The notes below the pieces were generated by a model. The model had not been told where the DNA came from, searched no databases, and saw only the letters and a program-made list of their open reading frames with translations. Source: Thermodesulfobacteriota bacterium (GTDB lineage Bacteria > Desulfobacterota_D > UBA1144 > Nemesobacterales > CSP1-2). From it: 64,000 bases of DNA. Positions 25,779-64,000 of the stretch are shown piece by piece (the stretch's first letter is position 1; each line of letters starts with the position of its first letter). The stretch lies in assembly GCA_035559815.1 (NCBI GenBank), contig DATMAT010000052.1, positions 12,219 through 76,218 on the forward strand. Reading direction: 5' to 3'. A program made the translations under genes and the position numbers.

Positions 25779-25833
25779 TTGTGCATAATTTATACTGTAA
25801 ATCCGTGTTTATTCGTGGCTACCTAGTAATAAA

Positions 25834-35999: not shown

Positions 36000-37109
36000 A
36001 TGCACCAGAAGAAACAAACTTCGACCGAAGTAATAAATCAGGTACGAGACGCCTTTGTGGAGAGGTTACTAAAATCAGCCTCGGGTGTATTTGATATCTT
36101 TACCATTTACATCGGGGATATGCTGGGTTTTTATAAAGCCCTTGCAAAACATGGCCCCTTGACATCTAGTGAACTCGCTTCCAAGACTGACACCCACGAA
36201 CGCTACGTACGTGAATGGCTCGAGCAACAAACGGTGGCAGGAATCCTTCAGGTCCAGAACCCGGAAGCAGACGCCGAGCATCGCAAATTCAAAATTCACC
36301 CGGGGCATGCAGAGGTGTTGGTCGAGCGGGACAGCCTCAACTATCTCGCCCCTCTCGCTCAAATTACCATAGGAGCGGTGAAACCGCTTGAATCTTTATT
36401 GAATGCATACCGCACTGGCGGTGGCGTTCCCTACAATGAATATGGAGCAAACCTCTACGAGGGACAAGCCGGTATGAACCGGGCCATGTTCTTACAGCAA
36501 TTGGGAACGGAGTGGCTCCCGGCTATTCCCGGGCTCAAAACCCGTTTGGAGTCAGACCCACCCGCACGTATCGCAGATATCGGATGCGGCGCCGGTTGGT
36601 CGAGCATAGGTATTGCTAAGACTTATCCCAAAGTACTCGTAGACGGATTCGACCTCGACGAGCCCTCGGTACTCCTTGCACGCAAAAACGCCGAAGAAGC
36701 GGGTGTTTCGGACCGCGTGAAATTCCAGATACGCGACGCTGGAGACCCGACGGTTGCCGGAAACTATGACCTGGTTACTGCTTTTGAGTGTGTTCACGAT
36801 ATGTCCAATCCGGTCACTGCTTTGCGGGGAATGAGAAATCTCACCAATGAGAAAGGTGTAGTACTGGTCATGGATGAACGGGTCGAGGAACGCTTCACGC
36901 CCGAAGGCAATGACGTAGAATGGTTCTTCTACGGCTTTAGTGTCCTTCATTGTCTTCCGGTTGGAATGGCTGAGCAACCCTCCGCAGGAACAGGCGCTGT
37001 TATGCGGCCGGGCATCTTAAAGCGTTATGCGGAAGAGGCCGGGTTTAAAGGTGTGGAGATTTTGCCGATCGAAAACTTCTTTTTCCGGTTTTATCGCCTG
37101 ATAAAATAG
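36000..37109 (+). CDS. Class I SAM-dependent methyltransferase, paralog of 34764-35822
   Basis: IADIGCGAGW motif I, DLVTAFECVHD; conserved N-terminal LTSSELASKTDTHERYVREWLE helix as in paralog (LTSGELAEHTGTSERYVREWLR); RBS AAAGGAGG. Confidence 0.8.
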   Translation: MHQKKQTSTEVINQVRDAFVERLLKSASGVFDIFTIYIGDMLGFYKALAKHGPLTSSELASKTDTHERYVREWLEQQTVAGILQVQNPEADAEHRKFKIHPGHAEVLVERDSLNYLAPLAQITIGAVKPLESLLNAYRTGGGVPYNEYGANLYEGQAGMNRAMFLQQLGTEWLPAIPGLKTRLESDPPARIADIGCGAGWSSIGIAKTYPKVLVDGFDLDEPSVLLARKNAEEAGVSDRVKFQIRDAGDPTVAGNYDLVTAFECVHDMSNPVTALRGMRNLTNEKGVVLVMDERVEERFTPEGNDVEWFFYGFSVLHCLPVGMAEQPSAGTGAVMRPGILKRYAEEAGFKGVEILPIENFFFRFYRLIK

Positions 37110-49323: not shown

Positions 49324-49727
49324 TATAAAAATAAACCTAAGGTTATAGTCAGATTGAATACCAGATTATTAATTATAGTTCTATGAGATGCTTAGGCGCA
49401 CGCAAATTTCAAACTTATGCAGATAGTTGCAAACTTACCTAACAAAAGTTTTAAGCTCAGAACCACAGTATTACCTTTCCGAATCAAAAATTAGGACAAA
49501 AGTCCGATTAATAATACCGTAGACGTAAATTAAAATGGTACAAAAGTATTAGTATTAATACACGGTTATTGTATCCTATTCTTCCTACCGATGTAGCCGA
49601 GAGGCGGAGCTATATGATAATTTCTGCTAATCATCCAAAACACATTTGAGGGGCACAACTAAACAAATTCAAATAAACGAAATACACCAAGCGTTTAAAC
49701 CGTTATTATCGATTCGGAGGTCCCCTT

Positions 49728-50606
49728 TTGTATAAATTAGAACTGCCCGAGAACAAAGACATTCCAGGACTGAGCATACCGAAGACGCTTCCGCATTTTA
49801 ATATTCGTCCTTCACATGGCTGGGTTTCTCTCAAGCTCAAAGACATTTGGGAATACCGAGAGCTTCTATACTTTTTAGTCTGGCGAGATATCAAAGTACG
49901 TTATAAGCAAACCGTACTAGGCGTAGCATGGGCCATATTACAACCTATTTTGACTATGGTGGTATTCAGTATCTTCTTTGGACGACTGGCTAAAGTGCCG
50001 TCTGACGGAATACCTTATCCGCTGTTTGCCTATAGCGCACTAGTACCTTGGCAGCTATTTGCAAACGCCCTGACGGCCTCCGGTAACAGCCTGGTGGCAA
50101 ACCAACAACTTTTAACAAAGGTCTATTTTCCACGCCTGGTCATCCCCATGTCAGCGGTGCTGGCCGGGCTAATCGATTTCGGAGTTTCCTTCCTGGTACT
50201 GATTGGAATGATGTTCTATTTCGGCGTTGTCCCAACTGTAGCAGTTTTAACCTTGCCCCTGCTAATCATGTTAGCTATAGCCAGTGCCCTAGCGGTAGGA
50301 TTATGGTTATCAGCCCTAAACGTCCAATATCGTGATGTGCAATATACAATACCTTTCTTGATGCAATTTTGGCTCTTCCTAACTCCCATTGCCTACCCAA
50401 GTAGCCTGGTACCAGAGAAATGGCGTATATTGTACGGCCTGAATCCAATGGCCGGAGTGGTAGAAGGGTTTCGCTGGGCACTCCTGGGTAAAACCAACGG
50501 AATAGGATCGCTAATATTCGTTTCCGCGTTAGTGGTTGCTATACTCCTTTTTGGAGGTCTGGTGTATTTTAGGCGTATGGAAAGAACATTCGCCGATGTA
50601 GTGTAA
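49728..50606 (+). CDS. wzm: ABC-2 type polysaccharide export permease (Wzm/TagG family)
   Basis: WRDIKVRYKQTVLGVAWAILQPILTM ABC-2 signature; 6 TM. Confidence 0.85.
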   Translation: MYKLELPENKDIPGLSIPKTLPHFNIRPSHGWVSLKLKDIWEYRELLYFLVWRDIKVRYKQTVLGVAWAILQPILTMVVFSIFFGRLAKVPSDGIPYPLFAYSALVPWQLFANALTASGNSLVANQQLLTKVYFPRLVIPMSAVLAGLIDFGVSFLVLIGMMFYFGVVPTVAVLTLPLLIMLAIASALAVGLWLSALNVQYRDVQYTIPFLMQFWLFLTPIAYPSSLVPEKWRILYGLNPMAGVVEGFRWALLGKTNGIGSLIFVSALVVAILLFGGLVYFRRMERTFADVV

Positions 50607-50609
50607 ATT

Positions 50610-51932
50610 ATGAGTGAAGTCGCTATCAGTGTTAAAAACCTTAGCAAGAAGTACCATATTGGGCAGCGCCAGCGCCATAATGCCCTTCGTGACAAAATCA
50701 CCGACGCTATGTACACAAGTCTCCGCCGCCTTTCGCGATTTGTGAATGGACAACCGGCAGCTTATAAAGAAGATAACATTATTTGGGCTCTAAAAGATGT
50801 CTCTCTCCAGGTGAAACGAGGCGAGGCTGTTGGCATCACTGGTCCCAACGGTGCCGGTAAGAGCACGCTACTAAAGATTCTCACTCGGATCACCGAGCCG
50901 ACGGAGGGCTATGCCGACATCTACGGTCGAGTGGGCTCACTACTGGAGATCGGTACTGGATTCCATTCAGAATTGACCGGACGAGAGAACATATATCTGA
51001 ACGGAGCTATCCTGGGCATGAAGAAAACAGAGATCGACCGAAAATTTGACGAGATTGTTGCATTTTCGGAGATCGAGAGGTTTCTGGACACTCCGGTGAA
51101 GCGCTATTCCAGTGGCATGTATATGCGCCTGGCATTTTCCGTAGCTGCTCATCTTGAACCGGAGATTTTATTAATCGATGAGGTCTTGTCCGTAGGTGAC
51201 GCTTCCTTCCAGAAAAAGTGCTTTGCTAAAATGGAAGAAATAAGACACGAAGGTCGTACAATACTTTTTGTCTCACATAATTTAGGCGCTATTACCCGTC
51301 TTTGTCAAAGAACTATTCTCTTCGAAGAAGGACGAATTTCAGCGGACGGGCCATCTCATCAAGTTATCAGTGCTTACTTAACACCAGGAACTGGTACAAC
51401 CGCCGAGAGAATATGGACTGACCCGGAAAAGGCTCCCCAGGGTGATATCACTCGCCTCCGTGCTGTACGGGTAAGGTCAGTAGAGGGCCATCTGATTGAT
51501 AAAATCGACATCAGACAACCTTTAAGGGTGGAGATGGAATACGAGGTTCTCAAACCAGACCATATAATCATGCCCCATTTTGCCTTTTACAACGAGGAAG
51601 GCGTTTTGGCTTTTTCAGCCCATGACCTCGATCCGGCCTGGCGGAAGCGCCCCCGTCCGGTTGGCTCATATGTAAGCACGGCATGGATTCCTGGCAATCT
51701 CCTAGCAGATGGTACTTTTTCGGTAGGAGCAGGGATTGATACGATTGACCCTATTATCTTCCAGTTTTATGAATACGACGTAGTAGCATTCCATGTGATA
51801 GACAATCTTGAAGGAGACACCGCTCGGGGTGATTTCACCGGGGACATGGGCGGTGTTCTTAGACCAATGCTTAAGTGGAGTACACAATTCAATGGCGACG
51901 AATCCTATACTAAACAGCGCTCAAAATCATAA
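50610..51932 (+). CDS. wzt: ABC transporter ATP-binding protein Wzt with about 150-aa C-terminal extension (probable glycan-terminus binding domain)
   Basis: Walker A GPNGAGKST, signature YSSGMYMRLAF, Walker B ILLIDE; extra C-terminal beta-rich domain. Confidence 0.85.
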   Translation: MSEVAISVKNLSKKYHIGQRQRHNALRDKITDAMYTSLRRLSRFVNGQPAAYKEDNIIWALKDVSLQVKRGEAVGITGPNGAGKSTLLKILTRITEPTEGYADIYGRVGSLLEIGTGFHSELTGRENIYLNGAILGMKKTEIDRKFDEIVAFSEIERFLDTPVKRYSSGMYMRLAFSVAAHLEPEILLIDEVLSVGDASFQKKCFAKMEEIRHEGRTILFVSHNLGAITRLCQRTILFEEGRISADGPSHQVISAYLTPGTGTTAERIWTDPEKAPQGDITRLRAVRVRSVEGHLIDKIDIRQPLRVEMEYEVLKPDHIIMPHFAFYNEEGVLAFSAHDLDPAWRKRPRPVGSYVSTAWIPGNLLADGTFSVGAGIDTIDPIIFQFYEYDVVAFHVIDNLEGDTARGDFTGDMGGVLRPMLKWSTQFNGDESYTKQRSKS

Positions 51933-51963
51933 TTAACGCCATTGCTGGATCCCGTAAAAGAAA

Positions 51964-52965
51964 ATGCGTAGCCAGCCCCTGGTATCTGCCATCATTATCT
52001 TTTTCAATGCCGAGAAATTCCTAGAGGAAGCCATAGAGAGCATTTTTGCCCAGACCTATGACAACTGGGAATTGTTACTCGTGGATGACGGTTCGACCGA
52101 CGGAAGCAGCAGAATCGCCTTAAATTATGCCGAGCAACACCCCGATAAGGTGTTCTATCTTGAACATGAAGGGCATCAAAACCGAGGAATGAGTACTTCC
52201 CGCAATCTAGGAATAAGACACGCCAGAGGTGAGTATATAGCTTTCCTGGATGCAGATGATGTATGGTTCCCTGAAAAACTAGAAGAGCAAGTAGCCATCC
52301 TCAACTCTAACCGAAGGGCGGCAATGGTTTATGGGCGCACCCTGATTTGGCGTACCTGGATGAAAGACCCCGCAAACAAACAACGTGATTTCATGTTTGA
52401 CCTAGGGCTGCAGCCAAATACTTTAGTCAAGCCACCTATACTGGTCCTTCTTTTGCTGCAAGGTAAATATCAAACACCAACCACCTGCAACGCCATGATA
52501 AGACGAGAAGTATTCGAGGAGATAGGGGGATTCATAGAGGACTTTCGGGGCATGCATGAGGACCAGGTCTTTTTTGTAAAACTTGGCCTGAAGCTTCCTG
52601 CATTTGTAGCAAATGAATGCTGGGCTAAGTACAGACAGCACCCGGATAGCTGTTGTGCCATTGCCGAGAAAAATGGAGAATCTGATTCCGCCTGGTTGAA
52701 TTTTTTAGACTGGATAAGAGGCCACTTAATCGAGCAGGGCGTGACCGACAGAAGAGTATGGAGTGCTTTAAAGAAGGCGTGGCGGCCGGTCCCATACCAG
52801 GCTTCTCACGGCATTTTAGGCCTCTTTCAGAATCTTAAATGGCACACAGAAAGAAAGCTGATATGGATAGCCCTGGGAGTAGCTAAATGGACATTGCCCG
52901 CTCCTGCCTACCGCTGGATTCAGATGAAACGGGGGATCATTTTGCCAGATACCATAAAAAACTAA
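51964..52965 (+). CDS. GT2 family glycosyltransferase (paralog group with 58509 and 60741 genes)
   Basis: PLVSAIIIFFNAEKFLEEAIESIFAQTYDNWELLLVDDGSTDGS ... DADD GT-A motifs. Confidence 0.85.
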   Translation: MRSQPLVSAIIIFFNAEKFLEEAIESIFAQTYDNWELLLVDDGSTDGSSRIALNYAEQHPDKVFYLEHEGHQNRGMSTSRNLGIRHARGEYIAFLDADDVWFPEKLEEQVAILNSNRRAAMVYGRTLIWRTWMKDPANKQRDFMFDLGLQPNTLVKPPILVLLLLQGKYQTPTTCNAMIRREVFEEIGGFIEDFRGMHEDQVFFVKLGLKLPAFVANECWAKYRQHPDSCCAIAEKNGESDSAWLNFLDWIRGHLIEQGVTDRRVWSALKKAWRPVPYQASHGILGLFQNLKWHTERKLIWIALGVAKWTLPAPAYRWIQMKRGIILPDTIKN

Positions 52966-53019
52966 CAAACTTTACGTAGACATCTTTAAGATTTACTAAT
53001 CATAAGGTTATTTCCCACG

Positions 53020-54291
53020 ATGAAAATCGCCTTTATTAGCTATGAATATCCTCCAGACGCCGCCTATGGCGGTATTGGAACTTATGTGTACCAAGCAGCC
53101 AGAATGTTGAAGGAGCGAGGCCATCATGTAGAGGTATTTACCAGCAGCCCGTACCGCTCCGGAAGCGAGACTGAGGATGGTGTAATAGTTCACCGAGTCT
53201 TGGAAAAGGAACAACAAAACTTCTCTACACCGATCGGTCAAATCTTCGCAAACCGTAACGCCGCTGTGCAATTTGACGTGCTTGAAGGGCCGGACTACGC
53301 TGCCGATGCCAGAGAAGCCGTTCGGCTCGTTCCTGAGATACCGTTAGTGATTAAGCTGCACACTCCCTCCATTGTGCTATTCAGGCTCAACTTCTACAAA
53401 CCAGAATCCTCTTTTCTGAGAAAGTCTCGGCTCTACGTAAAATCAATACTTAAAGGTGTAAAACATTCTTGGGGGTATGATCCAGACATTGAGGCTTACC
53501 GTTTATACACCTTGAAGGCTGATGAGATAGAGCGCTCGCATGCGCTTGATGCGGATGAGATTGCTACGCCCTCCAGAGCATTGGGAAACATAATGATTAA
53601 AGAATGGGGTATCGATGAGACAAAAGTCTCCCACGTCCCTTATCCTTATATTCCTACAGACAAGTTGCTTAATATACCAGTGGATACAAATACAAATGTT
53701 GTTACTTTCTTAGGTAGGCTTGAAATACGTAAAGGAGTACTTGACTTGGCAAAGGCTATTCCAATCATTTTACAACGTTACCCTCGGGTCAAGTTTCGTT
53801 TTGTTGGCTCATCCGAGCCTTCACCTAAACCAAATGTACCTATGCAACAATACTTGGAACATGCGTTACAGCGTTACAATAAATCGGTCGAGTTTACCGG
53901 CTTTGTACCGCCTGAAAGTGTTCTTGACATCTTAGCCGACACAGATATATGCGTTTTTCCCAGCATTTGGGAGAACTTCCCCTGCGTGTGCTTAGAAGCA
54001 ATGGCCGCGGCCCGTGGAATTGTTGGAAGTCAGGCGGGAGGTATGGTTGATATGTTAGACGCTGGCCGGGTAGGCAAACTTATTCCCCCTCTCAGCCCCG
54101 AAAGAATTGCGGAAGCGGTAATAGAGTTATTAGAAGACCCGAGCTTGCGTATGGCACTGGGACAGGCCGCTCGTGAACGCCTGCTTTCCGAGTACAATAT
54201 TAATCGTATAAGTACACTTCAGGAAGCCAGTTACACGCGTGCTATTATCCGAAGACGAAGCATGGGAACCCGCTTTAGGAAAGTCTCCTAA
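53020..54291 (+). CDS. GT4 family glycosyltransferase (GT-B fold)
   Basis: EYPPDAAYGGIGTY N-terminus; FPSIWENFPCVCLEAMAAARGIV E-x7-E motif region. Confidence 0.85.
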   Translation: MKIAFISYEYPPDAAYGGIGTYVYQAARMLKERGHHVEVFTSSPYRSGSETEDGVIVHRVLEKEQQNFSTPIGQIFANRNAAVQFDVLEGPDYAADAREAVRLVPEIPLVIKLHTPSIVLFRLNFYKPESSFLRKSRLYVKSILKGVKHSWGYDPDIEAYRLYTLKADEIERSHALDADEIATPSRALGNIMIKEWGIDETKVSHVPYPYIPTDKLLNIPVDTNTNVVTFLGRLEIRKGVLDLAKAIPIILQRYPRVKFRFVGSSEPSPKPNVPMQQYLEHALQRYNKSVEFTGFVPPESVLDILADTDICVFPSIWENFPCVCLEAMAAARGIVGSQAGGMVDMLDAGRVGKLIPPLSPERIAEAVIELLEDPSLRMALGQAARERLLSEYNINRISTLQEASYTRAIIRRRSMGTRFRKVS

Positions 54292-54500
54292 TGAGGGTTT
54301 GTAGTTCGGTTATCGTGAAACTAAATAGAAAGCACATTAAATGAACAAAATCATATTAAATAATCGTCTCTGGTGCCTACACCTTACCACTTGGGTTATG
54401 TTCTAAATTTTTGTTCCGTCTTTGTTGAGTTTACTTTGCACACCATAATTAATTCGCTGATTATAAATTTCCGTTTCAGCATATAATCGAAGTTTCAAGA

Positions 54501-57197
54501 ATGAACGTATCAGTTATCATCGCCGCCCACAACGCTGAGGACACTATAGCAGAGACCCTTCAGTCTCTACTCAACCAGAGCTTTCCGCACTGGGAGGCAA
54601 TAGTGGTCGACGACGGGTCGAGTGATGGCACCGAAAATGTTGTGAAAGGCTTTGTGGAGCGAGATGCTCGCTTTCGGCTTTTAAAACAACAGCAGATGGG
54701 GGTGAGCATAGCCAGAAATAACGGTATCAAACTGGCCCGTTCTGACTGGCTAGTTTTCTTAGATTCCGATGACTGGATTTTCCCCAGTCATTTAGAACGC
54801 TTGACCGGGCTAATCGAGGCTGACCCGACCCTGGACGTTGCCTATTGCGGCTGGGCCTATTTCACACCCGATGGTGAGCGAGTATTTGAAGAGTTTTATG
54901 GTAAAACCGGAGACTTGTTTGCTGACTACACCGCCTCTTGCGTCTCCGTATTACACACCTACATCGTTAGACGCTCTCTAGTCATAGCCGTTGGAGGCTT
55001 TGACCCCACTTACCGCACTTGTGAGGATTGGGATCTCTTCCAGCGAATTGCCCGAACTGGAGCACGTTTTGGGGGAATTGGAGAAACCCTAGCAGCTTAC
55101 CGAATGCGGCCCGGATCTGCTACATGTAACAGTCTACAATTACTCAAAGATGGTATACGGGTCTTGAATCAGGGGCACGCACCGGACCCTCGCCTCGCCC
55201 AGCTCCATATTCCTTACCCTGAGGGTTTACCCAAGGAACAACTGATAAAAAACAAGTTTGACTTACTCTCCGCCTGTGCTGGATATGCAATTGGAAGCGG
55301 GTATGATGCAAGGCCATTACTCGAAGAGCTAAAAGGTGAGAAATGTTTAACGCTTAACCCCAATGAAGCAGCTAACTGCATCTTCCGACATGCCATGGTA
55401 TCTGCATCCAGGCCTAGAAGCGAGTGGTACAAGCTTTGGACGGGCTTTGAAGATAAAGTAAAAGATTTTCTAGACGCGTTAGAAGCTCATACCGGTACTC
55501 CGGGGCTGGCTGGTCATGCACTCTGGTTTAGCAAAAATCTGGTGATGAGATATGCAAAAGACCCTGGGCTCGGGCGGCGCCTCGGATCCTTACAAGCACA
55601 TTTGATTCTGTGTATATCAAGTTCGATCAAAGAAACAGCTCGGAGACTCCATAAAGCCAAACAAATTTTGAAACGCTCCTCCCGGGTGGCTCTGCTGATG
55701 ATTCCTGAACTGAAACACATTTCCAAGAATATGAGGGGCCTCCTCAAACCAAGGAAAAAGGAAAACCCAGCTCTATCCAGGGAAAAGAGCAACCCCAAAG
55801 CTCACTTTGAGGAACTCTTTTCAAAAAGTCCCGACCCCTGGAATTATACAAATCCTTATGAGCAAACCAAGTATGAACAAACATTGAGTTTGATCCCGGA
55901 TGAGCCGATCGAAAAAGCCCTAGAGCTAGCCTGCGCAGAGGGGCACTTCACCGTACAGCTTGCACCCCGCGTCAAACATCTGCTGGCCGCTGACATATCA
56001 CAAATCGCTCTTCGCCGTGCCGCCGATCGTTGTAATAACCTTAAAAACGTGGCTTTCCAGTGTCTTGATATCACAAAGGACCCAATTCCCGGACAATTTG
56101 ACCTGATAGTTTGCAGTGAAGTCCTATATTTCGTCGGTGATCAAAAGAAACTAAGGACCACAGCAGAGAAGCTGGCAAACTGCTTAAATCCTGGAGGATA
56201 CCTACTGATGGCCCATGCAAATCTAATCGTGGATGAGCCCAATCAACCCGGATTTAATTGGGACCATGCATTCGGAGGAAAGGTTATCGGCGAGACATTC
56301 GCCCGTCACCATAATCTGGAATTTAGAAAAGAACTGCGTACGCCCCTCTATCGTATCCAACTCTTTCAGCGTAAGGACCACATTAACTTTTTTTCACGCA
56401 ACTGTGCCCCAAAGGCCATTGAACTCGCCCAGCACGGACCACTGCCGTCTAAGGTAGCCACGCAGGTTTTGTGGAACACGGATAAACTCCCGATTCTCAT
56501 ATATCGACGCGTGGGACCGATTAAGTCAGATACTCAGAATTACTCCACAGTCACGCCCGAGGCGTTTGAGGAACAACTGTGTTACTTACGTGACACTGAC
56601 CACGAGAGTATCAGTTTATATGAATGGCTTTATGCCGTGCATAGCAAAACCCCGCTAACAGGTCGAAAGGTAGTGATAACTTTTGACGAAGGTTGTCAAG
56701 ATTTCCTAACCTATGCCTGGCCTTTGTTGAAAAGATATGGTTTCTCGGCTGTTGTCTTCCTCATCACAGGCCAAATTGTAAGATCTAATAGCCAACATCA
56801 AAATCACCAAAAAGAAGTTACGCCACTTTCTTGGAAAGAAATCCGTCAACTCCAGTCCGAGGGTATCACTTTTGGCTCCTATTCCGTCAGCCATCCTGAT
56901 CTTACCTCAATATCCCTGAAAAAGGCACTCTGGGAAATTAGGAGATCCCGAGCCACACTTGAGAGGGAATTAGGCACATATATATCCTACTTCGCTTATC
57001 CCTATGGCAAATTCAACCGGTTGATTGAATACTTAGTCGGAATCAGCGGCTACGATTTTGGCCTATCCTCGGAACCAGGTCTATGCACGATGAGTCATTC
57101 CTTGCTGGCATTACCCCGCATCGAGGTTAAGGGCTCGGATAGTATAGAGGATTTTGCGGCAAAGCTCTGGGATATTTCTCCAGATAAAAAAGCTTAG
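54501..57197 (+). CDS. Trifunctional protein: N-terminal GT2 glycosyltransferase, central class I SAM methyltransferase, C-terminal CE4 (NodB-type) polysaccharide deacetylase
   Basis: VSVIIAAHNAEDTI...VVDDGSSDGT...DSDD (GT2); LACAEGHFTVQLAPRVKHLLAADIS...DLIVCSEVLYF (MTase); VVITFDEGCQDF...SHPDL...AYPYG (CE4). Confidence 0.8.
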   Translation: MNVSVIIAAHNAEDTIAETLQSLLNQSFPHWEAIVVDDGSSDGTENVVKGFVERDARFRLLKQQQMGVSIARNNGIKLARSDWLVFLDSDDWIFPSHLERLTGLIEADPTLDVAYCGWAYFTPDGERVFEEFYGKTGDLFADYTASCVSVLHTYIVRRSLVIAVGGFDPTYRTCEDWDLFQRIARTGARFGGIGETLAAYRMRPGSATCNSLQLLKDGIRVLNQGHAPDPRLAQLHIPYPEGLPKEQLIKNKFDLLSACAGYAIGSGYDARPLLEELKGEKCLTLNPNEAANCIFRHAMVSASRPRSEWYKLWTGFEDKVKDFLDALEAHTGTPGLAGHALWFSKNLVMRYAKDPGLGRRLGSLQAHLILCISSSIKETARRLHKAKQILKRSSRVALLMIPELKHISKNMRGLLKPRKKENPALSREKSNPKAHFEELFSKSPDPWNYTNPYEQTKYEQTLSLIPDEPIEKALELACAEGHFTVQLAPRVKHLLAADISQIALRRAADRCNNLKNVAFQCLDITKDPIPGQFDLIVCSEVLYFVGDQKKLRTTAEKLANCLNPGGYLLMAHANLIVDEPNQPGFNWDHAFGGKVIGETFARHHNLEFRKELRTPLYRIQLFQRKDHINFFSRNCAPKAIELAQHGPLPSKVATQVLWNTDKLPILIYRRVGPIKSDTQNYSTVTPEAFEEQLCYLRDTDHESISLYEWLYAVHSKTPLTGRKVVITFDEGCQDFLTYAWPLLKRYGFSAVVFLITGQIVRSNSQHQNHQKEVTPLSWKEIRQLQSEGITFGSYSVSHPDLTSISLKKALWEIRRSRATLERELGTYISYFAYPYGKFNRLIEYLVGISGYDFGLSSEPGLCTMSHSLLALPRIEVKGSDSIEDFAAKLWDISPDKKA

Positions 57198-57417
57198 ATA
57201 TTTTAGCACCAGCAGATTTAGTTGATTCAAGTCTAAAAGTCATTTCGAACAAATATCGTGATCTTATTTCAAAATATTCACCGTTTATTTTTATAATGGG
57301 GAACACACTGTAAAACATTGCTAAAAGCAAGATTTATTCATGGAGATCGCTGTCAATTTTTAAGATGCACCGTATCTTTAGAATTTAATTAAATTTTCGT
57401 GTCAGTTTCTTGAATAA

Positions 57418-58512
57418 ATGGAAAAGTTACTCCAAAAATCCTTATTATCAAGCTACTCTCTGTTTGGATTGGCATTGGCGTCAATATTGGGCTCATTATA
57501 TTCAGATCCGATTTTTTTGCGAAACCTTTTCTTGGCATTGGGTAGCCTTTTATTCTTAATTGCCATACTAAGACTCAACTCACAAAACCGAGAACAAGAG
57601 CCAAACACCAGATTCACAACATCAACAGACTGGGGCATAATTGACTTATCAGTTGAAGAGACCAATAAACGAACCATATTATCTTTAACCGTTAAGGAAT
57701 TAATTCTGTGGCTTCTTCTCTTAGCTTCTTTTTTTTCTCTGTTCCTTCTTGTTTTCTACCCACGCCGCTACGACCTATTAAGTAGAGAGGATTATATCGT
57801 AGAAACGGTTACAGCTACCCTTTTATTCATTAGCTGTGGGATTTTTATACGGATAATGGCCAAGCTGATGCATTTTTATAAACCTAGTAACATTTTCGTC
57901 ATCACCACATTGGTTTTGGCACTAATTCTATTTTTGGATGGAATGGAGGAAGTTTCTTGGTTTCAACGGGTTTTCAATATTAAAACCCCTCAAGAATTCT
58001 CCGGTAATGTGCAGGGAGAATTAAATATCCACAATTTTGCGACTGGCTTTTCTCATAAGGCCTATTTTTTTGGTGCATTCTGCCTTTTTATTTTCCTGCC
58101 TTTTTTGAAAGCTGAGACATCATTACTAGGAAAAAAGATATTTTCATTCTTTTTACCCAGTCGATTCTTGATATTTACAGGTACTCTATTCATGGCTTAT
58201 GATTTCGATGCTTATTTTTCCAATCCGTTACCACAATTCACATACCTAGTTACACTGTTTATTCTTATTTATTACACATGGCGTCTGCGCTCTGTAGACA
58301 TGACTTTTTTGCTGCCTATCCTCGTTATATACTATTTACTAGCTCCTTTTGTATTCTCCAATTTCGCGTTTCAACTTGGCGTGAATGCCTGGAGGATAGG
58401 TGAATACAAAGAACTTTCCATCAGTGTCTGTTTTCTACTATATTCTTTAGAAATACTTTCTAAAGGTAAACCACTTGAATCTATAGATTTACCAAAGTCT
58501 ACCTGGTCATGA
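57418..58512 (+). CDS. Polytopic integral membrane protein of unknown function inside the glycan cluster (about 9-10 TM)
   Basis: Hydrophobic helices throughout; 4-bp start/stop overlap with downstream GT2 gene. Confidence 0.5.
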   Translation: MEKLLQKSLLSSYSLFGLALASILGSLYSDPIFLRNLFLALGSLLFLIAILRLNSQNREQEPNTRFTTSTDWGIIDLSVEETNKRTILSLTVKELILWLLLLASFFSLFLLVFYPRRYDLLSREDYIVETVTATLLFISCGIFIRIMAKLMHFYKPSNIFVITTLVLALILFLDGMEEVSWFQRVFNIKTPQEFSGNVQGELNIHNFATGFSHKAYFFGAFCLFIFLPFLKAETSLLGKKIFSFFLPSRFLIFTGTLFMAYDFDAYFSNPLPQFTYLVTLFILIYYTWRLRSVDMTFLLPILVIYYLLAPFVFSNFAFQLGVNAWRIGEYKELSISVCFLLYSLEILSKGKPLESIDLPKSTWS

Positions 58513-59474
58513 AAGATAAACCGCTTGTGTCTGTTATTATGATTTTTTTAAACGCCGAGAAGTTTATGGAGGAGGCTATAAAAAGCGTATTCGCTCAGAC
58601 CTATGACAACTGGGAGCTGCTGCTAGTAGACGACGGGTCAACCGACGGCAGCTCTGCCATTGCTCAGCGGTATTCAGAAAAATATCCGAAAAAGGTGCGC
58701 TATCTGGAACATGACGGGCATCAAAACAGGGGCAAGAGCATATCTCGCAACCTAGGCATTAGCAATTCCAGGGGTGATTATATCGCTCTCCTGGACGCTG
58801 ACGATGTATTCTTACCACAAAAACTGGAGCAACAGGTCGAAATATTGGAATCCATGCCCGAAGCGGCTATGCTATATGGGCGTACCCATCATTGGTATAG
58901 CTGGACAGACAACCCGGGAGATGCAAGGCTTGATTACCTCCAGAAACTCGCTGTTCCTCCCGACACATTAGCTATGCCGCCGACTCTTCTCATTCGTTAT
59001 TTGGAAGACCCTCATAAGTATCCATGCACCTGTAGCGTTTTGATAAGAAAAGATGTGTTCAAAGATGTGGGAGGATTTGAAGAAACCTTCCGAGATTTAT
59101 ATGATGACGTAGTTTTTTTCGTCAAGGTTTTCCTGAAAGCACCAGTGTTTGTTGCAGACGCATGCTGGAGTAGGTATCGATTGCACTCATCCGAGCGCTT
59201 TTCTTCCAGCTACTACCGGGCAATAAAGGCTGGACAATGGCACCCTTTTCTGCCAAATCCGTCAAGATTGACTCTATTGAATTGGTTAGAAGGGTATTTA
59301 TTAGAACAAGAAATAAAAGACATCAGAGTCTGGAATGCTCTTCGGAGAGTTCAAAGGCCTTATCGCTATCCCCATTTCTATCGAATGCTGGGCCTCCTCA
59401 GGAACCTGATAAGACAGATGAAAGTCCGTTACTTGAAACTAAGAGGGCAAGACATCTTACCCATAAAATTATAG
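58509..59474 (+). CDS. GT2 family glycosyltransferase (paralog)
   Basis: [44 protein letters not shown]. Confidence 0.85.
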   Translation: [321 protein letters not shown]

Positions 59475-59704
59475 TTTTCTATTTTGGAAGTTTTTGCCAC
59501 TTAAAAAAATAGTAAATTAATATGTCCAGATTGTGTATTGCACACAAGAGTCCAGTTAATAAGTAGTAAGTTTTTTCTTTTCCGCCCGTATTATTGTAAG
59601 ATCGAGTTAAGGCACTAAAACCCGCAATTGCACACCACTTAATCGAAAATATTTGCATCAGGTGATAAAAATTATCATGCTGGCCACAAATCAGAGGAGA
59701 TAGG

Positions 59705-60739
59705 ATGAAAAAGACTGAAACCAGACGGGTGCAGCGAGCTATCGAGTGGTTCAGTGATAGGTTTACGGTAAAAGGGCTTATTTTGATGTACCACAGTATA
59801 AACGAGTGGGGCTCAGACCCATGGTCGCTATCCGTGACCCCTGATCACTTTGCCGAACATCTTGAAGTTTTACAAAAGTACGGCCGCCCGATGCAACTTA
59901 GGCAATTTATACGAAAGTATAGATTTGGAATTGCTCCTCGAAACGTTATCGTTATAACCTTTGACGACGGTTATGCCGATAACCTAATCAATGCCAAACC
60001 GTTGCTGGAGCTCTATAATATCCCCGCAACGGTCTTTCTCACTACCGGCTATATTGGAAGCGAATACGAATTCTGGTGGGACGAACTAGATGGGTTATTT
60101 TTGCAACCCGGCAAATTGCCAGAGGTACTTTGTTTAAATATTGATGGAAAAAGCTATGAGTGGAAATTAAACAACGGAGGCTACTACAGTGAGGAAGAGT
60201 ATCATAACAGCCGAAACCTAAAACCCTGGGATGGAAACCCTGGCTCCCGACACCATCTCTATTACTCAATTTGGCAACTATTAAGGTCTTTACCACATGA
60301 CGAGCAAAGAAGGACAATGGATGAAATACTGAATTGGGCTTCTATCGAACCAACAGTTCGCCCAACCCATCGTCCTCTCAATCTAGAGGAAGTTTTTGAT
60401 TTATCGCAGGGAGAGCTTATCGAAATCGGCTCACATACCGTAACCCACCCGTTTCTGTCCTTGCACACTTTAGCTTCTCAGCAAAATGAAATAAAGAAGG
60501 GCAAGGATAAACTGGAACACATATTGGGCCGCCCGGTAACCAGTTTTGCATATCCACACGGAGATTACACGGAAGAGGCAATCGCTCTTGTTCGTCAGGC
60601 CGGGTTTGCCTGTGCCTGTTCCACAATCGCCGATGTGGTATGGTGGCATACAGACCGTTTTCAATTGCCTCGTGTTCAAGTAGAGGACTGCGACGGCGAA
60701 GAATTTGAAAATAAGCTCTATGAATGGTTCAACGGCTGA
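59705..60739 (+). CDS. Polysaccharide deacetylase (CE4/NodB homology domain)
   Basis: VIVITFDDGYADN, IGSHTVTHP, FAYPHGDY CE4 motifs. Confidence 0.85.
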   Translation: MKKTETRRVQRAIEWFSDRFTVKGLILMYHSINEWGSDPWSLSVTPDHFAEHLEVLQKYGRPMQLRQFIRKYRFGIAPRNVIVITFDDGYADNLINAKPLLELYNIPATVFLTTGYIGSEYEFWWDELDGLFLQPGKLPEVLCLNIDGKSYEWKLNNGGYYSEEEYHNSRNLKPWDGNPGSRHHLYYSIWQLLRSLPHDEQRRTMDEILNWASIEPTVRPTHRPLNLEEVFDLSQGELIEIGSHTVTHPFLSLHTLASQQNEIKKGKDKLEHILGRPVTSFAYPHGDYTEEAIALVRQAGFACACSTIADVVWWHTDRFQLPRVQVEDCDGEEFENKLYEWFNG

Positions 60740-60740
60740 A

Positions 60741-61658
60741 ATGATGAATACCAAGCCATTAGTTTCTGTCATCACCATATTTTACAACGCAGAAAAATTC
60801 ATCGATCAGGCAATTAAAAGCGTTTTTTTCCAGACCTATGATAACTGGGAGCTCTTGCTGGTAGACGACGGCTCGTCCGACAGCAGCAGTGAAATTGCCA
60901 AGAGCTATGCAGAGAGCTACCCAGAAAAGGTACATTGCTTGGAGCATCAAGACCGTCAGAACAAGGGCATGAGCACTTCCCGCAATCTCGGCGTCAGCAA
61001 GTCTCATGGTGATTATATTGCTTTCCTTGACGCCGACGACATATTCCTGCCACAGAAACTGGAGCGACAGTTAGAGATCCTCATCTCACATCCCGAAGCC
61101 GAGATGGTCTGCGGGCCTACGGAATGGTGGTACAGCTGGACCGGAGACCCCCAGGATGCCAAGCTTGATTATAAAAGGGGAATTAGCCCCCAGTATAACG
61201 TATTATTCAAACCACCGGCATTTCTTAAGCTCCTACTCAGGACTAAAGCTAGAACACCAGCCACCTGCGCCATCCTGGCACGTCGCCGTCTCTTCGATAT
61301 TACCGGAGGCTTCGAGGATAGCTTCCATAGCATGTACGAAGACCAGGCCTTTTTTTTCAAGGTTTTTCTTAAGACCCCTGTGTTCGTGGCCAGTGAATGT
61401 TGGGACAGGTATCGCCAGCATTCTGATTCCTCTTGTTCCGTGGCATTGAATTCGGGACTATATCACCCGGATATGCCCAATGTCGCTCATTTAAATTTCC
61501 TGAACTGGTTTAAAGAATATCTATCGGAGCAAGGAATAGATGACCGAGAAATCGCGATTCTGCTGAGAAAAAAATTTCTGAGATATCGTTATCCAAATCT
61601 ATTCAGATTGCTGAACTACTCGTTAAGATTATTGCCCAAGAATTGGTTTAGTTTGTGA
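60741..61658 (+). CDS. GT2 family glycosyltransferase (paralog; ATG 60741 directly after upstream stop, track ORF from 60705)
   Basis: [44 protein letters not shown]. Confidence 0.85.
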   Translation: [305 protein letters not shown]

Positions 61659-61755
61659 ATCCGGGTAGAGCATCGGTCTGAACTGAGGTAATTTTAATGA
61701 TAACTCTATCCATTTTCTAATACCAAACATAATACTTCCGCAAAAGGGTATTGAC

Positions 61756-62781
61756 TTGGCCACTCAACCTCTTATATCTGTCATCATCTTGACATCTAGA
61801 TGGGAAGAAAAAGAAAATGTGTTAGACCGATGTCTTGAAGGGCTATATGGCCAGACCTTCAGAGAATTCGAAATTATTTTGGTATGCAACGGTCTAAAAA
61901 AGAGCCAGACAAGTGAAATTAGGAACAAACACCCGAAGGTGAAGATAATAGAAAATGAAAAAAACAACGGTTGTGCCGGTGGGAGAAACCAAGGAATCAA
62001 GGAATCTATGGGTGATTACATAGTTACGCTCGACGATGACATGGTTCCGGATAGGCATTGGCTAGAAGAACTCATGAGATGTGTATTGGTAGACGGAAAA
62101 ATAGGGATGCTGGCTTCCAAAGTATTATTCAGCTCTGACCCAGACATCATAGATTGCGCGGGGGTAGAAATTAGCAAGGATGGTAACGTGTACGGCAGAA
62201 AGGGCATGACCAGAGATGCTGGGGATTCTGAGCAATTTGAAGAGGTCTTCTGTCCTTCTGGCGGTGCCGCCTTTTATAAAAGGGAGATCTTCGAAGAAGT
62301 AGGGTTATTCGATGAGGATTTCTTTATCTATTACGAGGAAGTCGACTTGGCATTTCGGGCGCGACTGGCCGGCTGGAGATGTTTATACGTTCCAAAAGCA
62401 ATTCTATTTCACCAACATGGCTGGTCGTTAGGCCATGAATCGAGCGGCAAGATCTTTCTTCTTGAAAGGAACAAAATTCTAACCATATTAAAGAATTGGC
62501 CCCTAAAGCAGATGATTTATTATGCTCCTCTAATCGTTACTTATGACTTACTGGCAGATGGCTACTATATATTAAAAAAGAACGACCTATCCAGGCTAAA
62601 AGCCAAGGTCAGCGCATTAAAACAACTGCCGCGGGTCTTAAAGGAGCGGGACAAAATCCAGAGTAGCAGGAAGATTTCTTCCGTGGAGATGGATAAACTC
62701 TGGGGGCCTTACTATTCCCCTTGGTTTATATATCAGCGCCGCCGCCGATTGAACCGCATTTTGCAGGGGAAAAATAGCTGA
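61756..62781 (+). CDS. GT2 family glycosyltransferase (rhamnosyltransferase-like); TTG start
   Basis: PLISVIILTSRWEEKE...YGQTFREFEIILVCNG ... DDDM motif. Confidence 0.8.
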   Translation: MATQPLISVIILTSRWEEKENVLDRCLEGLYGQTFREFEIILVCNGLKKSQTSEIRNKHPKVKIIENEKNNGCAGGRNQGIKESMGDYIVTLDDDMVPDRHWLEELMRCVLVDGKIGMLASKVLFSSDPDIIDCAGVEISKDGNVYGRKGMTRDAGDSEQFEEVFCPSGGAAFYKREIFEEVGLFDEDFFIYYEEVDLAFRARLAGWRCLYVPKAILFHQHGWSLGHESSGKIFLLERNKILTILKNWPLKQMIYYAPLIVTYDLLADGYYILKKNDLSRLKAKVSALKQLPRVLKERDKIQSSRKISSVEMDKLWGPYYSPWFIYQRRRRLNRILQGKNS

Positions 62782-62806
62782 TTGCTCATATCATTCACCA
62801 AAAAGC

Positions 62807-63808
62807 ATGAAAATTCTCTATTTTACCCATAGAGGCCAGTTGCTGACGGGCTCTGGAACATACCGTGACATCCTGCTGCATGAGATGGGTAAGAGACATG
62901 ACATTGGGATTTATTCAACACCTGAGGATTTAAAGGAGGAATGGGACATTGGCCACGTATTGGACCTGAAGCACGCAAACCCGAAATGCTGGCAAGATGT
63001 AAGCTTTCCGGTTCTTGTGGATATACATGATTACTATTGGACTAAGTTTCATTACTTTCCCTGCCCCGATCTTCCGCTCAGATTTGTGCTTCAAAAAATA
63101 AGAAAGTGGCGCTATACCAAAATTCTAAGCAGGGCTCAGGCAATCATTGTTCATTCCGAATACGTGAAGAACACAATTTGCCATCCAAACATATTCGTGG
63201 TCAGACTAGCCATTGACCCGAACAACTATACCAGACCTTCTAATCAGCAGGATAAGAACTTAATTTTATTCGTCGGACGGGACTATTTTAGAAAAGGCCT
63301 ACCCACCTTAATAAAGGCTTTGCCCTTGGTGCTAAAAGAGATTCCGGACGTCAGAGTGGTAGTAATCGGCCCGGAATATCTTCATTCGAGATTAGCGGCT
63401 AAATTCATCACCGGAAATCTACCCGTAAAGTTTATCAACGGTCTTCCTCCGGAGGAGATTAAAAAATATTTTTATCAAGCCAACTTACTTGTCCTCCCTT
63501 CCGAGATCGAAGCCTCCGGTATAGTGCTGCTTGAGGCTATGGCCGCAGGACTACCCATCGTCGCCACCAGAGTCGGGGGTATTCCGGAGATTATCCAGGA
63601 CGGTATAAATGGCATACTGGTGGAGAGAGGAGATAATCGACAACTTGCCAGGAGTATAATCGAAGTCCTCCGAAATAAGATAATCCGGGACCAGAGAAAC
63701 CACCCAAACTGGGAAGACATGTTTAATCCTGCCAAGATGGTGGAATCTATAGAATCGGTTTATCAACAAATCAGGGAGAGTCTAAACGCTGTAAAAAATA
63801 AGCACTAA
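62807..63808 (+). CDS. GT4 family glycosyltransferase
   Basis: C-terminal LVLPSEIEASGIVLLEAMAAGLPIVATRVGGIPEII GT4 motif. Confidence 0.85.
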   Translation: MKILYFTHRGQLLTGSGTYRDILLHEMGKRHDIGIYSTPEDLKEEWDIGHVLDLKHANPKCWQDVSFPVLVDIHDYYWTKFHYFPCPDLPLRFVLQKIRKWRYTKILSRAQAIIVHSEYVKNTICHPNIFVVRLAIDPNNYTRPSNQQDKNLILFVGRDYFRKGLPTLIKALPLVLKEIPDVRVVVIGPEYLHSRLAAKFITGNLPVKFINGLPPEEIKKYFYQANLLVLPSEIEASGIVLLEAMAAGLPIVATRVGGIPEIIQDGINGILVERGDNRQLARSIIEVLRNKIIRDQRNHPNWEDMFNPAKMVESIESVYQQIRESLNAVKNKH

Positions 63809-64000
63809 CTCACCCGGTAACAGAATACGATCCGTTCTGGTAGTCCTTTGAGTCTAAAGCCGGTTTGAATATCCGATTTATGATAGTATATATAGGTCAA
63901 AAGGCTTATCTTGTCGTTAACATAAACCCATTTCTCCTTAAAAAACTGACAAAAGTCCAATATTCTCTCTTCAGTTTTATCCAGATAATTTTCACAGATG

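Follow-up and report, generated by a model that had tools for sequence, protein, structure and literature searches.

The DNA analyzed here (the window) is a stretch of 64,000 nucleotides from a Thermodesulfobacteriota bacterium, the last part of which, from position 49324 onwards, had been interpreted in a previous, sequence-only reading as an ABC-transporter-dependent glycan cluster. The complete set of genes listed in that reading is present at the positions it gave, and all the genes, domains and the leader described below for the window lie on the forward strand. Family assignments for all the genes supported the overall interpretation: the region is a real and fairly ordinary surface-glycan cluster, whose polymer is exported via an ABC transporter. 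The cluster does not stop at position 64000: the genes continue on the Logan contig L001, of identical sequence, where L001:11325-12506 encodes a third GT4 and L001:12854-14299, ending at the contig edge, a FAD amine-oxidase-like protein. The operon-like cluster thus covers at least 17 kb and runs about 3 kb beyond the window, with eight glycosyltransferase (GT) modules inside the window and a ninth just past its end. An initiating phosphoglycosyltransferase was not found in a scan of every plausible window ORF from 150 aa upwards, nor were wzx, wzy or wzz found in the cluster. The window sequence also contains OEP/RND efflux genes, indicating a diderm host.

The cluster is preceded by an AT-rich leader, as had been noticed earlier (49324..49727; 404 bp, with 33.9% GC versus 46.3% for the window). 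It contains a short island, CGGAGCT(A/G)TAT, common to the window and its closest relative, locus L002, and a single weak sigma-70-like match (49508-49536), although shuffled sequence gives as many; no terminator-like site was found in positions 49324-49727. The wzm gene starts at a TTG codon with GGAGG 7 nt upstream and encodes the ABC-2 permease (49728..50606; PF01061, E = 1.6e-19), which yields weak NCBIfam matches to KpsM and galactan-Wzm, far under the cut-offs. The following gene, wzt (50610-51932), encodes a 440-aa protein with an N-terminal nucleotide-binding domain (NBD; aa 1-257, 50610..51380; ABC_tran at residues 61-192, E = 5.8e-21). The nearest PDB sequence to this NBD is Aquifex aeolicus Wzt (6amx/8dku, E = 1e-69), and it also matches NodI (E = 5e-26).

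The sequence-only reading attributed to Wzt an extra C-terminal domain of about 150 aa. Such a domain exists, but it is longer, of approximately 180 aa (aa 258-440, 51381..51932). Pfam Wzt_C scored it at 19.6 bits, under the 30.4 cut-off; the domain has 216 homologues, many of them with PF14524. An AlphaFold2 model of the region (pLDDT 88.7) is a beta-sandwich, and the best 17 matches in a Foldseek comparison with the PDB were all Wzt carbohydrate-binding domains (CBDs), from Aquifex (6o14/8dky, E = 4e-7), E. coli O9a (2r5o, E = 2e-6) and Raoultella O12 (with 5hnp at E = 1e-4). The fold is therefore shared with the O9a domain, the comparison that had been suggested, and the extension, as judged from the model, is a genuine Wzt CBD. 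Aquifex WzmWzt (6amx, 7k2t, 8dku, 6o14, 8dky) is the closest solved relative of the window NBD, and its CBD provides the best structural match (TM-score 0.73, normalised to target), albeit with a sequence identity of only about 15%; the ligand of the Aquifex CBD is 3-O-methyl-mannose. The identity of the locus as an ABC-dependent glycan cluster with a genuine Wzt CBD is virtually certain.

Four GT2 and two GT4 enzymes are encoded as separate proteins in the window, as anticipated: GT2a (51964..52965; PF00535, E = 6e-39), GT4a (53020..54291; PF00534, E = 2e-31), GT2b (58509..59474; PF00535, E = 1e-36), GT2c (60720..61658), the more distant GT2d (61756..62781; PF00535, E = 4e-24) and GT4b (62807..63808). 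The start of GT2c is uncertain, the candidates being 60705 (TTG), 60720 (the call on L001) and 60741 (ATG). GT2a, GT2b and GT2c are indeed paralogs, but their N-termini are not nearly identical, as previously described: identity is 68-75% across the first 100 residues and 51-54% overall. GT2a is found directly 3' of wzt also in L002, L003 and L015, and a GT2c-type enzyme is encoded downstream of a stand-alone deacetylase (see below) in most relatives. The predicted polytopic membrane protein was also confirmed (57418..58512; 364 aa, 36% GC). It has no match in Pfam or NCBIfam, 1858 representative clusters were retrieved for it, and its AlphaFold2 model (pLDDT 90.1, pTM 0.90) does not match any PDB fold (best E = 0.19). 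The gene was found only in the window (L001 being the same sequence) and L002, and can be considered a lineage-specific accessory gene. Two of the three distant homologues examined are outside glycan clusters; GT-C-type genes occur a few kb from the third.

The most complex gene of the cluster (54501-57197) encodes an 898-aa protein with the order GT2, middle region, methyltransferase and CE4, and the fusion of three domains proposed earlier was substantiated by matches to PF00535, PF05401 and PF01522. An identical (100%) record, P0001, is named [quoted passage not shown]. The family is therefore already known and named by NCBI, and the window protein shares its domain order with hundreds of homologues (at least 587 stretches confirmed in species-representative genomes); no characterised or biochemically studied member was found in the literature searched. 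The GT2 domain (aa 1-230, 54501..55190; PF00535 at residues 4-190, E = 1e-34) keeps the DSDD and ED motifs, with D88, D91, E175 and D176 invariant in 30 homologues. The middle region (aa 231-440, 55191..55820) is conserved and gave no family match; its C-terminal end is basic and helix-like, and by eye it is not a long coiled coil. Neither a kinase domain nor, by eye, a coiled-coil ruler was seen in the protein. A membrane-spanning segment was not evident by eye in any of the three domains, which appear to be cytoplasmic.

The third segment is a NodS-type class I SAM methyltransferase (aa 441-645, 55821..56435), scoring 76.7 bits against PF05401 at residues 444-598 (cut-off 24). Its best PDB match is NodS (3ofj, E = 1e-20), in an alignment that takes in the N-terminal DPW..NP(Y/F)E segment, followed by phosphoethanolamine N-methyltransferases (8e-17). 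Its NodS equivalog score is 94, for a cut-off of 300. The SAM motif ELACAEG is invariant among homologues, including those of the two CE4 clades, intact and degenerate, described below. The domain thus groups with NodS and not with non-glycan methyltransferases, since NodS itself acts on a glycan. The expected likeness to WbdD was not found: this protein is absent from the 75 PDB matches at E <= 10, although the methyltransferase of WbdD has been reported to be structurally nearest to NodS (PMC3482155). Sequence alone does not distinguish N- from O-methylation in this case. One could still envisage a classical mechanism in the style of WbdD, in which the terminal sugar is O-methylated or phospho-methylated while the CE4 domains work separately on in-chain HexNAc. 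The E. coli O9a/O8 (Klebsiella O3/O5) system also combines a Wzm/Wzt ABC-2 exporter with a SAM methyltransferase encoded in the cluster, and the 3-O-methyl-mannose ligand of the Aquifex CBD would fit. Such a mechanism appears improbable, considering that no kinase or coiled coil was seen in the trifunctional protein, and that its methyltransferase lacks any detectable sequence similarity to WbdD and has N-methyltransferases as its top PDB matches. Unlike WbdD, the enzyme shares its polypeptide with a GT2 and a CE4-fold domain. Moreover, hundreds of species genomes encode the methyltransferase-CE4 fusion, an argument for action of both domains on one and the same residue.

The sequence-only reading recognized two CE4 deacetylase domains. 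Both are present, but a full catalytic pentad is found only in the stand-alone copy. The CE4-fold domain of the trifunctional protein (56463..57197; PF01522 at residues 719-847, E = 1.6e-22; best PDB match 6dq3, E = 5e-22) presents R669, D729, E730, Y794 and H798 instead of the expected H,D,D,H,H, that is, three of the five catalytic or metal-binding residues are lost. This pentad is retained in 58 of the 66 genomic copies of the fused protein that were scored, so that the three activities implied by the NCBI name contrast with the degenerate CE4 of the window clade, which is monophyletic on a tree made without the CE4 columns. Within the clade the lost positions vary further (Q/N/R, P/K/C/R and D/A/N/R/R), and such free drift suggests relaxed selection. 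The stand-alone CE4 (59705..60739; PF01522, E = 2.4e-23), separated from GT2b by a gap of 230 bp with 34% GC (59475..59704), conserves H30, D87, D88, H244 and H248. Both domains share PF01522 with the PgaB/IcaB/PplD-type enzymes, which act outside the cytoplasm. In contrast to these, no signal peptide was evident by eye in the stand-alone copy or export signal in the fused one, itself joined to a SAM-dependent enzyme, and both are presumably cytoplasmic, like NodB.

An orthologue of the stand-alone CE4, with a complete H,D,D,H,H set, is present in all seven degenerate-clade loci with enough flank to be testable (window, L003, L004, L006, L015, L090 and L091). Where the fused CE4 is intact, the loci showed no stand-alone CE4 of the window type (above 300 bits). 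The intact stand-alone enzyme is therefore co-inherited with the degenerate fused domain. We propose that the latter is likely a pseudo-deacetylase, probably retained as a glycan-binding or scaffolding module, and that the stand-alone CE4 would act in trans. A fused CE4 still active through an altered E/Y/H metal site, with the stand-alone enzyme serving a separate purpose such as partial deacetylation of the backbone, is quite unlikely. The fold is conserved, the catalytic base D729 and the metal ligand H798 are kept, and metal binding by E730/Y794/H798 is conceivable, since Glu and Tyr can be metal ligands. Against this, Arg669 replaces the conserved His of the YH motif of intact members, presumed to be the catalytic acid, as in PgaB-type enzymes, and both the drift and the co-occurrence just described also argue for loss of function. 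An additional stand-alone methyltransferase of 250 aa (MT2) is encoded in seven related loci, mostly directly upstream of the stand-alone CE4 (it is located elsewhere in L006), and the deacetylase might actually work together with this enzyme; MT2 is missing in the window, where tblastn detected no remnant of it.

These observations could be integrated in a model in which a lipid-linked heteroglycan is, very likely, built on the cytoplasmic side of the inner membrane and exported by Wzm/Wzt. The GT2 domain of the trifunctional protein would add a HexNAc, which in the window lineage would be de-N-acetylated in trans by the stand-alone CE4, and the freed amine would then be N-methylated by the NodS-type domain, yielding a cationic N-methyl-hexosamine. 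This chemistry, assumed by analogy, is plausible but tentative. To our knowledge, NodB followed by NodS is the only characterised pathway coupling a CE4 to a NodS-family enzyme. The rhizobial NodC/NodB/NodS set shares with the window the GT2, CE4 and NodS-family classes, and NodIJ shares ABC-2 export. In contrast to the Nod system, there is no NodA acyltransferase in the window cluster, the fused CE4 is degenerate, the trifunctional GT2 differs from the NodC membrane synthase (a NodC match, at only 9e-6, falls on another GT2 of the cluster), and seven additional GTs in the window plus another just past it imply a larger lipid-linked glycan than the Nod product.

The sequence-only reading raised the possibility of a chain-terminating cap. 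NodB and NodS are specific for the GlcNAc at the non-reducing end of chito-oligosaccharides, the trifunctional protein contains the only methyltransferase of the window cluster, and 24 of the 26 Wzt proteins encoded beside a trifunctional gene have a C-terminal extension of CBD size (at least 156 aa), which weakly favors the idea. In the characterised terminated systems reviewed, Wzt recognizes the terminal residue through a carbohydrate-binding module (PMC11231755), and a terminal alpha-GlcNMe is found in a bacterial LPS, in the core of Bradyrhizobium ORS285 (PMC5542761), although this is a lead only. In contrast, neither the CBD nor the trifunctional gene follows the other across loci, a further difference from WbdD. 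The closest syntenic clusters fall into three CBD types that cannot be aligned with each other (window/L002, L003/L004/L015 and L006), and six loci whose CBD is 54-60% identical to that of the window lack a trifunctional gene at distances of up to 10 kb. Furthermore, 43 of the 67 loci of the family lack Wzm/Wzt in the flanks examined, 15 being beside a type-I half-transporter and 28 without any transporter. That the methylated residue is a non-reducing cap recognized by the Wzt CBD is therefore rather doubtful.

The same lack of co-variation and of Wzm/Wzt would fit a trifunctional protein that builds or decorates a portion inside the glycan, for example a side residue of the repeat unit or an adaptor near the reducing end, any terminator being another GT and the CBD ligand being unrelated to the methyltransferase. 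This is conceivable, though still short of convincing given the CBD-sized extensions, the NodB/NodS specificity and the lack of a second methyltransferase. The seven further GT modules of the window, and the eighth just outside, offer candidates, and in most syntenic relatives examined the gene just upstream of the trifunctional one is GT4a (L006 has a gap between them), an adjacency that suggests a shared step. Geobacillus WsaE is a multi-module terminator/polymerase protein of an ABC-dependent pathway. Klebsiella O7 ORF6 and O12 WbbB likewise join GT and methyltransferase modules in one polypeptide in a Wzm/Wzt cluster, but they have a coiled-coil ruler, plus a kinase in O7, and the window protein has neither of these and an extra CE4-fold domain (PMC11231755). 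In the resolved O4 and O7 complexes, the terminator-bearing protein also has such a ruler, and a plain GT can be the terminator, as for Kdo in O12 and O4 (PMC11231755).

Altogether, an ABC-exported heteroglycan with a pseudo-CE4 assisted in trans by an intact CE4 and an N-methyl-hexosamine module, the cap being left as a possibility, represents the best explanation for the whole cluster, one that we hold with moderate confidence. Its notable parts are the three-domain enzyme with a predicted-inactive deacetylase, the intact separate CE4 nearby and the membrane protein without a fold match. The new result for the trifunctional family is the existence of a clade with a degenerate CE4 paired with an intact stand-alone CE4.

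All the genes that the sequence-only reading had named in the region spanning positions 49324 to 64000 proved to be genuine open reading frames on the plus strand, with strong family support. The cluster begins with the genes for the permease Wzm (49728-50606; PF01061, E = 1.6e-19) and for Wzt, a 440-residue ATPase of the Wzt/TagH/KpsT type (50610-51932; ABC_tran, E = 5.8e-21), which are separated by 3 nt and place the system among the ABC-2 polysaccharide exporters. They are followed, on the same strand, by GT2a (51964-52965), GT4a (53020-54291), the 898-residue trifunctional protein (54501-57197), a 364-residue membrane protein without a family match (57418-58512), GT2b (58509-59474), a stand-alone CE4 deacetylase (59705-60739; PF01522, E = 2.4e-23), GT2c (about 60720-61658), GT2d (61756-62781) and GT4b (62807-63808). 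The trifunctional protein carries a GT2 domain at residues 4-190, a NodS-type methyltransferase at 444-598 and a CE4 domain at 719-847. Five cluster proteins, including GT2a, GT2b, GT2c and GT2d, match PF00535 (GT2, GT-A domain), and GT4a and GT4b match PF00534. The existence of three GT2 paralogs was borne out, but not the description of their N-termini as near-identical, since identity amounts to 68-75% in the first 100 residues and to 51-54% along the whole length. OEP efflux (outer-membrane) and RND genes indicate that the host is diderm. The cluster is a variant of the familiar ABC-transporter-dependent pathway, and at its centre stands an enzyme family that is catalogued but uncharacterised.

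The 404-bp leader preceding the cluster (49324-49727) has a GC content of 33.9%, versus 46.3% for the window. Neither a promoter nor a terminator nor a riboswitch-like element could be recognised in it with conviction, and promoter-like matches were no more numerous than in shuffled sequence. Similarly, an Rfam scan of the whole window at gathering thresholds returned nothing. A short island at about 49616-49630, CGGAGCT(A/G)TAT, and a few adjoining blocks are conserved with the otherwise diverged leader of L002, the closest relative, and could represent a promoter or regulatory site. An apparent resemblance of GGCGGAGC in the leader to the enterobacterial ops element, GGCGGTAG, was dismissed as too weak. 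The genes upstream are unrelated to the cluster: they encode an aldo-keto reductase, a luciferase-like oxidoreductase and, at 47497-49323 (+), a 608-residue protein in which an alpha-like domain (ACCA) and a beta-like one (Carboxyl_trans) of the acetyl-CoA carboxylase carboxyltransferase are fused in a single chain. At the other end, the cluster extends beyond the window edge, as the identical Logan contig L001 carries a third GT4 gene and an FAD amine-oxidase-like gene of the PRK07208 type, with weak similarity to UDP-galactopyranose mutase, which is a conserved member of the cluster in the relatives too. A scan of the large open reading frames in the window did not reveal an initiating phosphoglycosyltransferase. 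In the syntenic metagenomic contig L091, a WecG/TagA-like transferase and a small Bac_transf phosphoglycosyltransferase are encoded immediately before the corresponding cluster, at the 5' end of the latter (loci for these transferases and for the conserved FAD gene: L091:1131-2698, L090:1419-2921 and L001:12854-14299).

Elsewhere in the window, three consecutive large predicted surface proteins are encoded at 16485-24411 (+), namely a cadherin-like/Big_9 protein, a CarboxypepD_reg/Big_9 protein and a beta-helix protein with DUF5123, and a 1341-residue CHASE4-PAS-GAF-GGDEF signalling protein lies downstream of them (29065-33090). Two genes at 24712-26871 (+) may form a small peptide-modification pair: the product of the first contains an HPr-kinase C-terminal-like domain (32.9 bits, slightly short of the cut-off of 33.3), and the second encodes a radical SAM enzyme. 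In the segment 33097-39343, two sigma-54 activator genes, one on the minus strand (33097-34002) and one on the plus strand (37403-39343), enclose a pair of paralogous Rv2258c-like winged-HTH methyltransferases (34764-35822 and 36000-37109).

The proposal that Wzt bears a C-terminal carbohydrate-binding domain (CBD) was upheld. The extension scored 19.6 bits (E = 1e-3) against Pfam Wzt_C (PF14524), under the gathering cut-off of 30.4, and a phmmer search of the PDB aligned the nucleotide-binding part of Wzt alone (Aquifex Wzt, E = 1e-69). The C-terminal 186 residues have 216 homologues, and PF14524 is recognised in many of those that are 50-60% identical. AlphaFold2, supplied with 60 of these 216 homologues, gave a confident model (pLDDT 88.7, pTM 0.83), and when this was compared with the PDB by Foldseek, the best 17 matches were all Wzt CBDs: Aquifex 6o14 and 8dky (E = 4e-7), the latter with bound 3-O-methyl-mannose, E. 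coli O9a 2r5o (E = 2e-6) and the Kdo-cap-binding O12 domain 5hnp (E = 1e-4). The extension is therefore present, C-terminal to the nucleotide-binding domain, and, as judged from its modelled fold, the beta-sandwich of the solved Wzt CBDs, it is a real CBD.

The trifunctional protein belongs to a large family. A record 100% identical to it carries the NCBI name 'trifunctional glycosyltransferase/class I SAM-dependent methyltransferase/polysaccharide deacetylase', 1541 homologues were found in the protein collection, and the family was confirmed in at least 587 stretches of species-representative genomes, its members combining in one chain GT2, a conserved middle region, a NodS-type methyltransferase and CE4. 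Among the best loci, the hosts include cyanobacteria, Brocadia, Scalindua, Acidobacteriota, Gemmatimonadota, Actinomycetota, Bacteroidota, Bradyrhizobium and Mesorhizobium. A search of the literature yielded no characterised member. The DSDD (DxD) motif at residues 88-91 of the GT2 domain is invariant. Two size forms exist, of about 900 and about 1200 residues, the longer one having an insert of about 340 residues that follows the middle region and precedes the methyltransferase (Nostoc, Brocadia; L011:9959-13471 and L023:9962-13708). This insert has no Pfam match. A motif of the type G..LG.I.LP is repeated inside it, and it may correspond to a pair of beta-rich modules; a coiled coil was discarded, as the extra residues resemble beta-rich repeats and not heptads. 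In Bradyrhizobium, the gene lies in an apparent operon GT2-trifunctional-GT2, followed by a 610-residue type-I ABC exporter instead of Wzm/Wzt (L078:8823-15743 in Bradyrhizobium genosp. P; also L019, L030 and L070).

The earlier proposal took as its paradigm WbdD, the enzyme that adds the terminal cap in E. coli O8/O9a, and called for a comparison of the methyltransferase with it. The domain matched PF05401 with 76.7 bits (cut-off 24) and, when searched alone against the PDB, its top match was NodS (3ofj, E = 1e-20), in an alignment that takes in the N-terminal DPW..NP(F/Y)E segment of NodS, followed by plant phosphoethanolamine N-methyltransferases (8e-17), while WbdD was missing from the 75 matches at E ≤ 10. 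At the level of sequence, the domain is thus allied to an N-methyltransferase of glycans rather than to WbdD, so that the glycan type stood and the WbdD type did not. It is a family relative of NodS and not an orthologue, its score against the NodS equivalog NF041650 being 94 bits versus a cut-off of 300. In the paper on the structure of WbdD, NodS is reported to be its closest structural neighbour (PMC3482155). The fold alone is unable to tell N- from O-methylation. Terminators of the O9a WbdD type have a kinase domain, and no kinase family appeared among the Pfam or NCBIfam matches of any cluster protein. When residues 231-440 of the trifunctional protein were inspected by eye for a coiled-coil ruler, just a short basic helix-like stretch broken by Pro was seen. 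Considering the fusion to CE4 and the N-methyltransferases among the top matches, the domain may N-methylate a de-N-acetylated terminal hexosamine.

The combination of a pseudo-CE4 domain with a second CE4 that would act in trans is the most solid new point of the analysis. CE4 enzymes employ a catalytic acid His, a catalytic base Asp and an Asp-His-His metal triad. The fused domain has the CE4 (NodB homology) fold (PF01522, E = 1.6e-22), and in the window protein the corresponding positions are R669, D729, E730, Y794 and H798, so the catalytic and metal-binding set is not retained. In its nearest relatives these positions drift to Q/N/R, P/K/C/R, D/A/N/R/R, etc. Of 66 fused proteins from genome loci that were scored, 58 retain H, D, D, H and H (YH, TFDD and HxxxH motifs). 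When 30 trifunctional sequences were placed in a neighbour-joining tree, using the GT2, middle and methyltransferase columns only, the 17 with a degenerate CE4 all fell into a single clade, and the 13 with an intact CE4 were its sister group, a pattern that fits a single ancestral loss of the CE4 residues, followed by relaxed selection. The motif residues of GT2 and of the methyltransferase are invariant in both clades. The stand-alone CE4 has H30, D87, D88, H244 and H248, and these five residues are conserved in ten out of ten orthologues. Such an orthologue occurs in all seven degenerate-clade loci with enough flank (the window, L003, L004, L006, L015, L090 and L091), and no CE4 of this type (above 300 bits) was found in the loci with an intact fused CE4. 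The likeliest explanation is that the fused CE4 is dead and has been retained for binding or scaffolding, and that the separate CE4 carries out the deacetylation. The 'polysaccharide deacetylase' in the name of the family overstates the activity of a whole clade that has lost the CE4 catalytic pentad. As an intact stand-alone CE4 accompanies this clade throughout, nature offers here a clear case of a pseudoenzyme domain with a backup in trans.

The order Wzm, Wzt, (GT2a), GT4a, trifunctional gene, GT2a/b-type paralogs, stand-alone CE4 and GT2c is common to several distant lineages: L002, a groundwater 'Deltaproteobacteria' MAG whose trifunctional protein is 81% identical, L003 from an uncultured bacterium, the three cyanobacteria L004, L006 and L015, and the two metagenomic contigs L090 and L091. 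Seven relatives also possess MT2, a stand-alone methyltransferase of 250 residues (57-81% mutual identity) that is not NodS-like and is mostly encoded directly upstream of the stand-alone CE4 (L003:18290-18988, L004:14718-15380, L015:11834-12583, L090:14654-15412, L091:15634-16392, L084:15050-15733), although L006 has it at another place in its locus. At this position the window has merely a 230-bp gap (59475-59704; GC 34%), and tblastn with the relatives' MT2 detected no remnant in window 57000-64000, L001 or L002; MT2 is also absent from L002 as far as this contig goes, as it stops right after GT2b. Instead of MT2, the window and L002 carry the AT-rich membrane-protein gene (36% GC versus 45% for the cluster), which is outside the conserved cluster core. 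Its product matched no Pfam or NCBIfam family, and neither did Pfam identify one on 60 homologues, two of which are long fusions with DUF6798 elsewhere in the chain. The AlphaFold2 model (pLDDT 90.1, pTM 0.90) is mostly helical, with one beta-hairpin, and found no relative among PDB folds (best E = 0.19, TM-score ≤ 0.3). The protein matches 1858 representative clusters, with conserved EE-SW-Q and E-N-HN motifs, and of three distant homologues examined, two lie outside glycan clusters and one has GT-C-type genes a few kb away, so that their context gave no information on function. An identity as GT-C, WaaL or Wzy is not supported. The protein is a member of a large uncharacterised family with a confident predicted structure and without a solved structural relative.

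The question of whether the cluster includes a chain-terminating cap, as had been suggested, received a mixed answer. In favour of a cap, the terminal residue is read by a carbohydrate-binding module on Wzt in those characterised systems with chain termination that are covered in PMC11231755. A C-terminal extension of at least 156 residues is present in 24 of the 26 Wzt proteins encoded within 10 kb of a trifunctional gene, the remaining two being incomplete or truncated, and the trifunctional protein bears the only methyltransferase of the window cluster. In the Nod pathway, both NodB and NodS work on the non-reducing terminal residue. The LPS core of Bradyrhizobium ORS285 contains a terminal alpha-GlcNMe (PMC5542761); inspection of the Bradyrhizobium trifunctional locus revealed no core-LPS genes among the neighbours scanned, so this link is taken only as a lead. 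The lack of a kinase and of a coiled-coil ruler evident by eye counted against a cap. So did the distribution of transporters, for across 67 family loci, Wzm/Wzt occurred in 24, a type-I half-transporter within 3 kb in 15, and neither in the flanks examined in 28. It was also considered that the CBD clade of the window might be specific for the product of the trifunctional protein. However, the CBDs of syntenic clusters fall into mutually unalignable sequence types (window and L002 versus L003, L004 and L015 versus L006), and six loci with a CBD 54-60% identical to that of the window lack the trifunctional gene within 10 kb; both findings also speak against a cap. One of the six has MT2 and an orthologue of the stand-alone CE4 along with genes similar to GT2b. 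As CBD and trifunctional protein do not co-vary, this idea was dropped. In another of the six, L087, the CBD of Wzt is 57% identical to that of the window and the cluster contains sulfotransferase and ATP-sulfurylase/APS-kinase (PAPS-synthesis) genes (L087:3776-4789 and 12630-14432), a hint that glycans of different chemistry are served by CBDs of similar sequence. In sum, the earlier interpretation is supported in part: the CBD is real, the methyltransferase is of the NodS and not the WbdD type, and the comparative evidence is divided, so that the notion that the residue made by the trifunctional protein is a cap read by the Wzt CBD is kept as a possible but rather doubtful reading of these sequences. 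Higher confidence is placed in the general reading, in which a HexNAc would be added and then deacetylated and N-methylated.

A more specific model is advanced speculatively and considered improbable. In this model, a HexNAc would be added, de-N-acetylated and N-methylated, in the NodB/NodS order, yielding a cationic N-methyl-hexosamine cap, which would act as a widespread and hitherto undescribed signal of chain termination and export for CBD-bearing Wzm/Wzt systems in environmental bacteria, namely cyanobacteria, anammox planctomycetes, Acidobacteriota and Thermodesulfobacteriota; in one clade, the fused deacetylase would be a pseudoenzyme serving to bind or measure the glycan, with catalysis left to the separate CE4. 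Chain terminators of the methyl, methyl-phosphate and Kdo types are known. If the trifunctional protein does make a terminal N-methyl-hexosamine, the chain terminators and export signals of ABC-transporter-dependent glycans would gain a type with a new chemistry. A function would also be given to a protein family that occurs in hundreds of species of bacteria, among them cyanobacteria and anammox bacteria, about whose surface glycans little is known.
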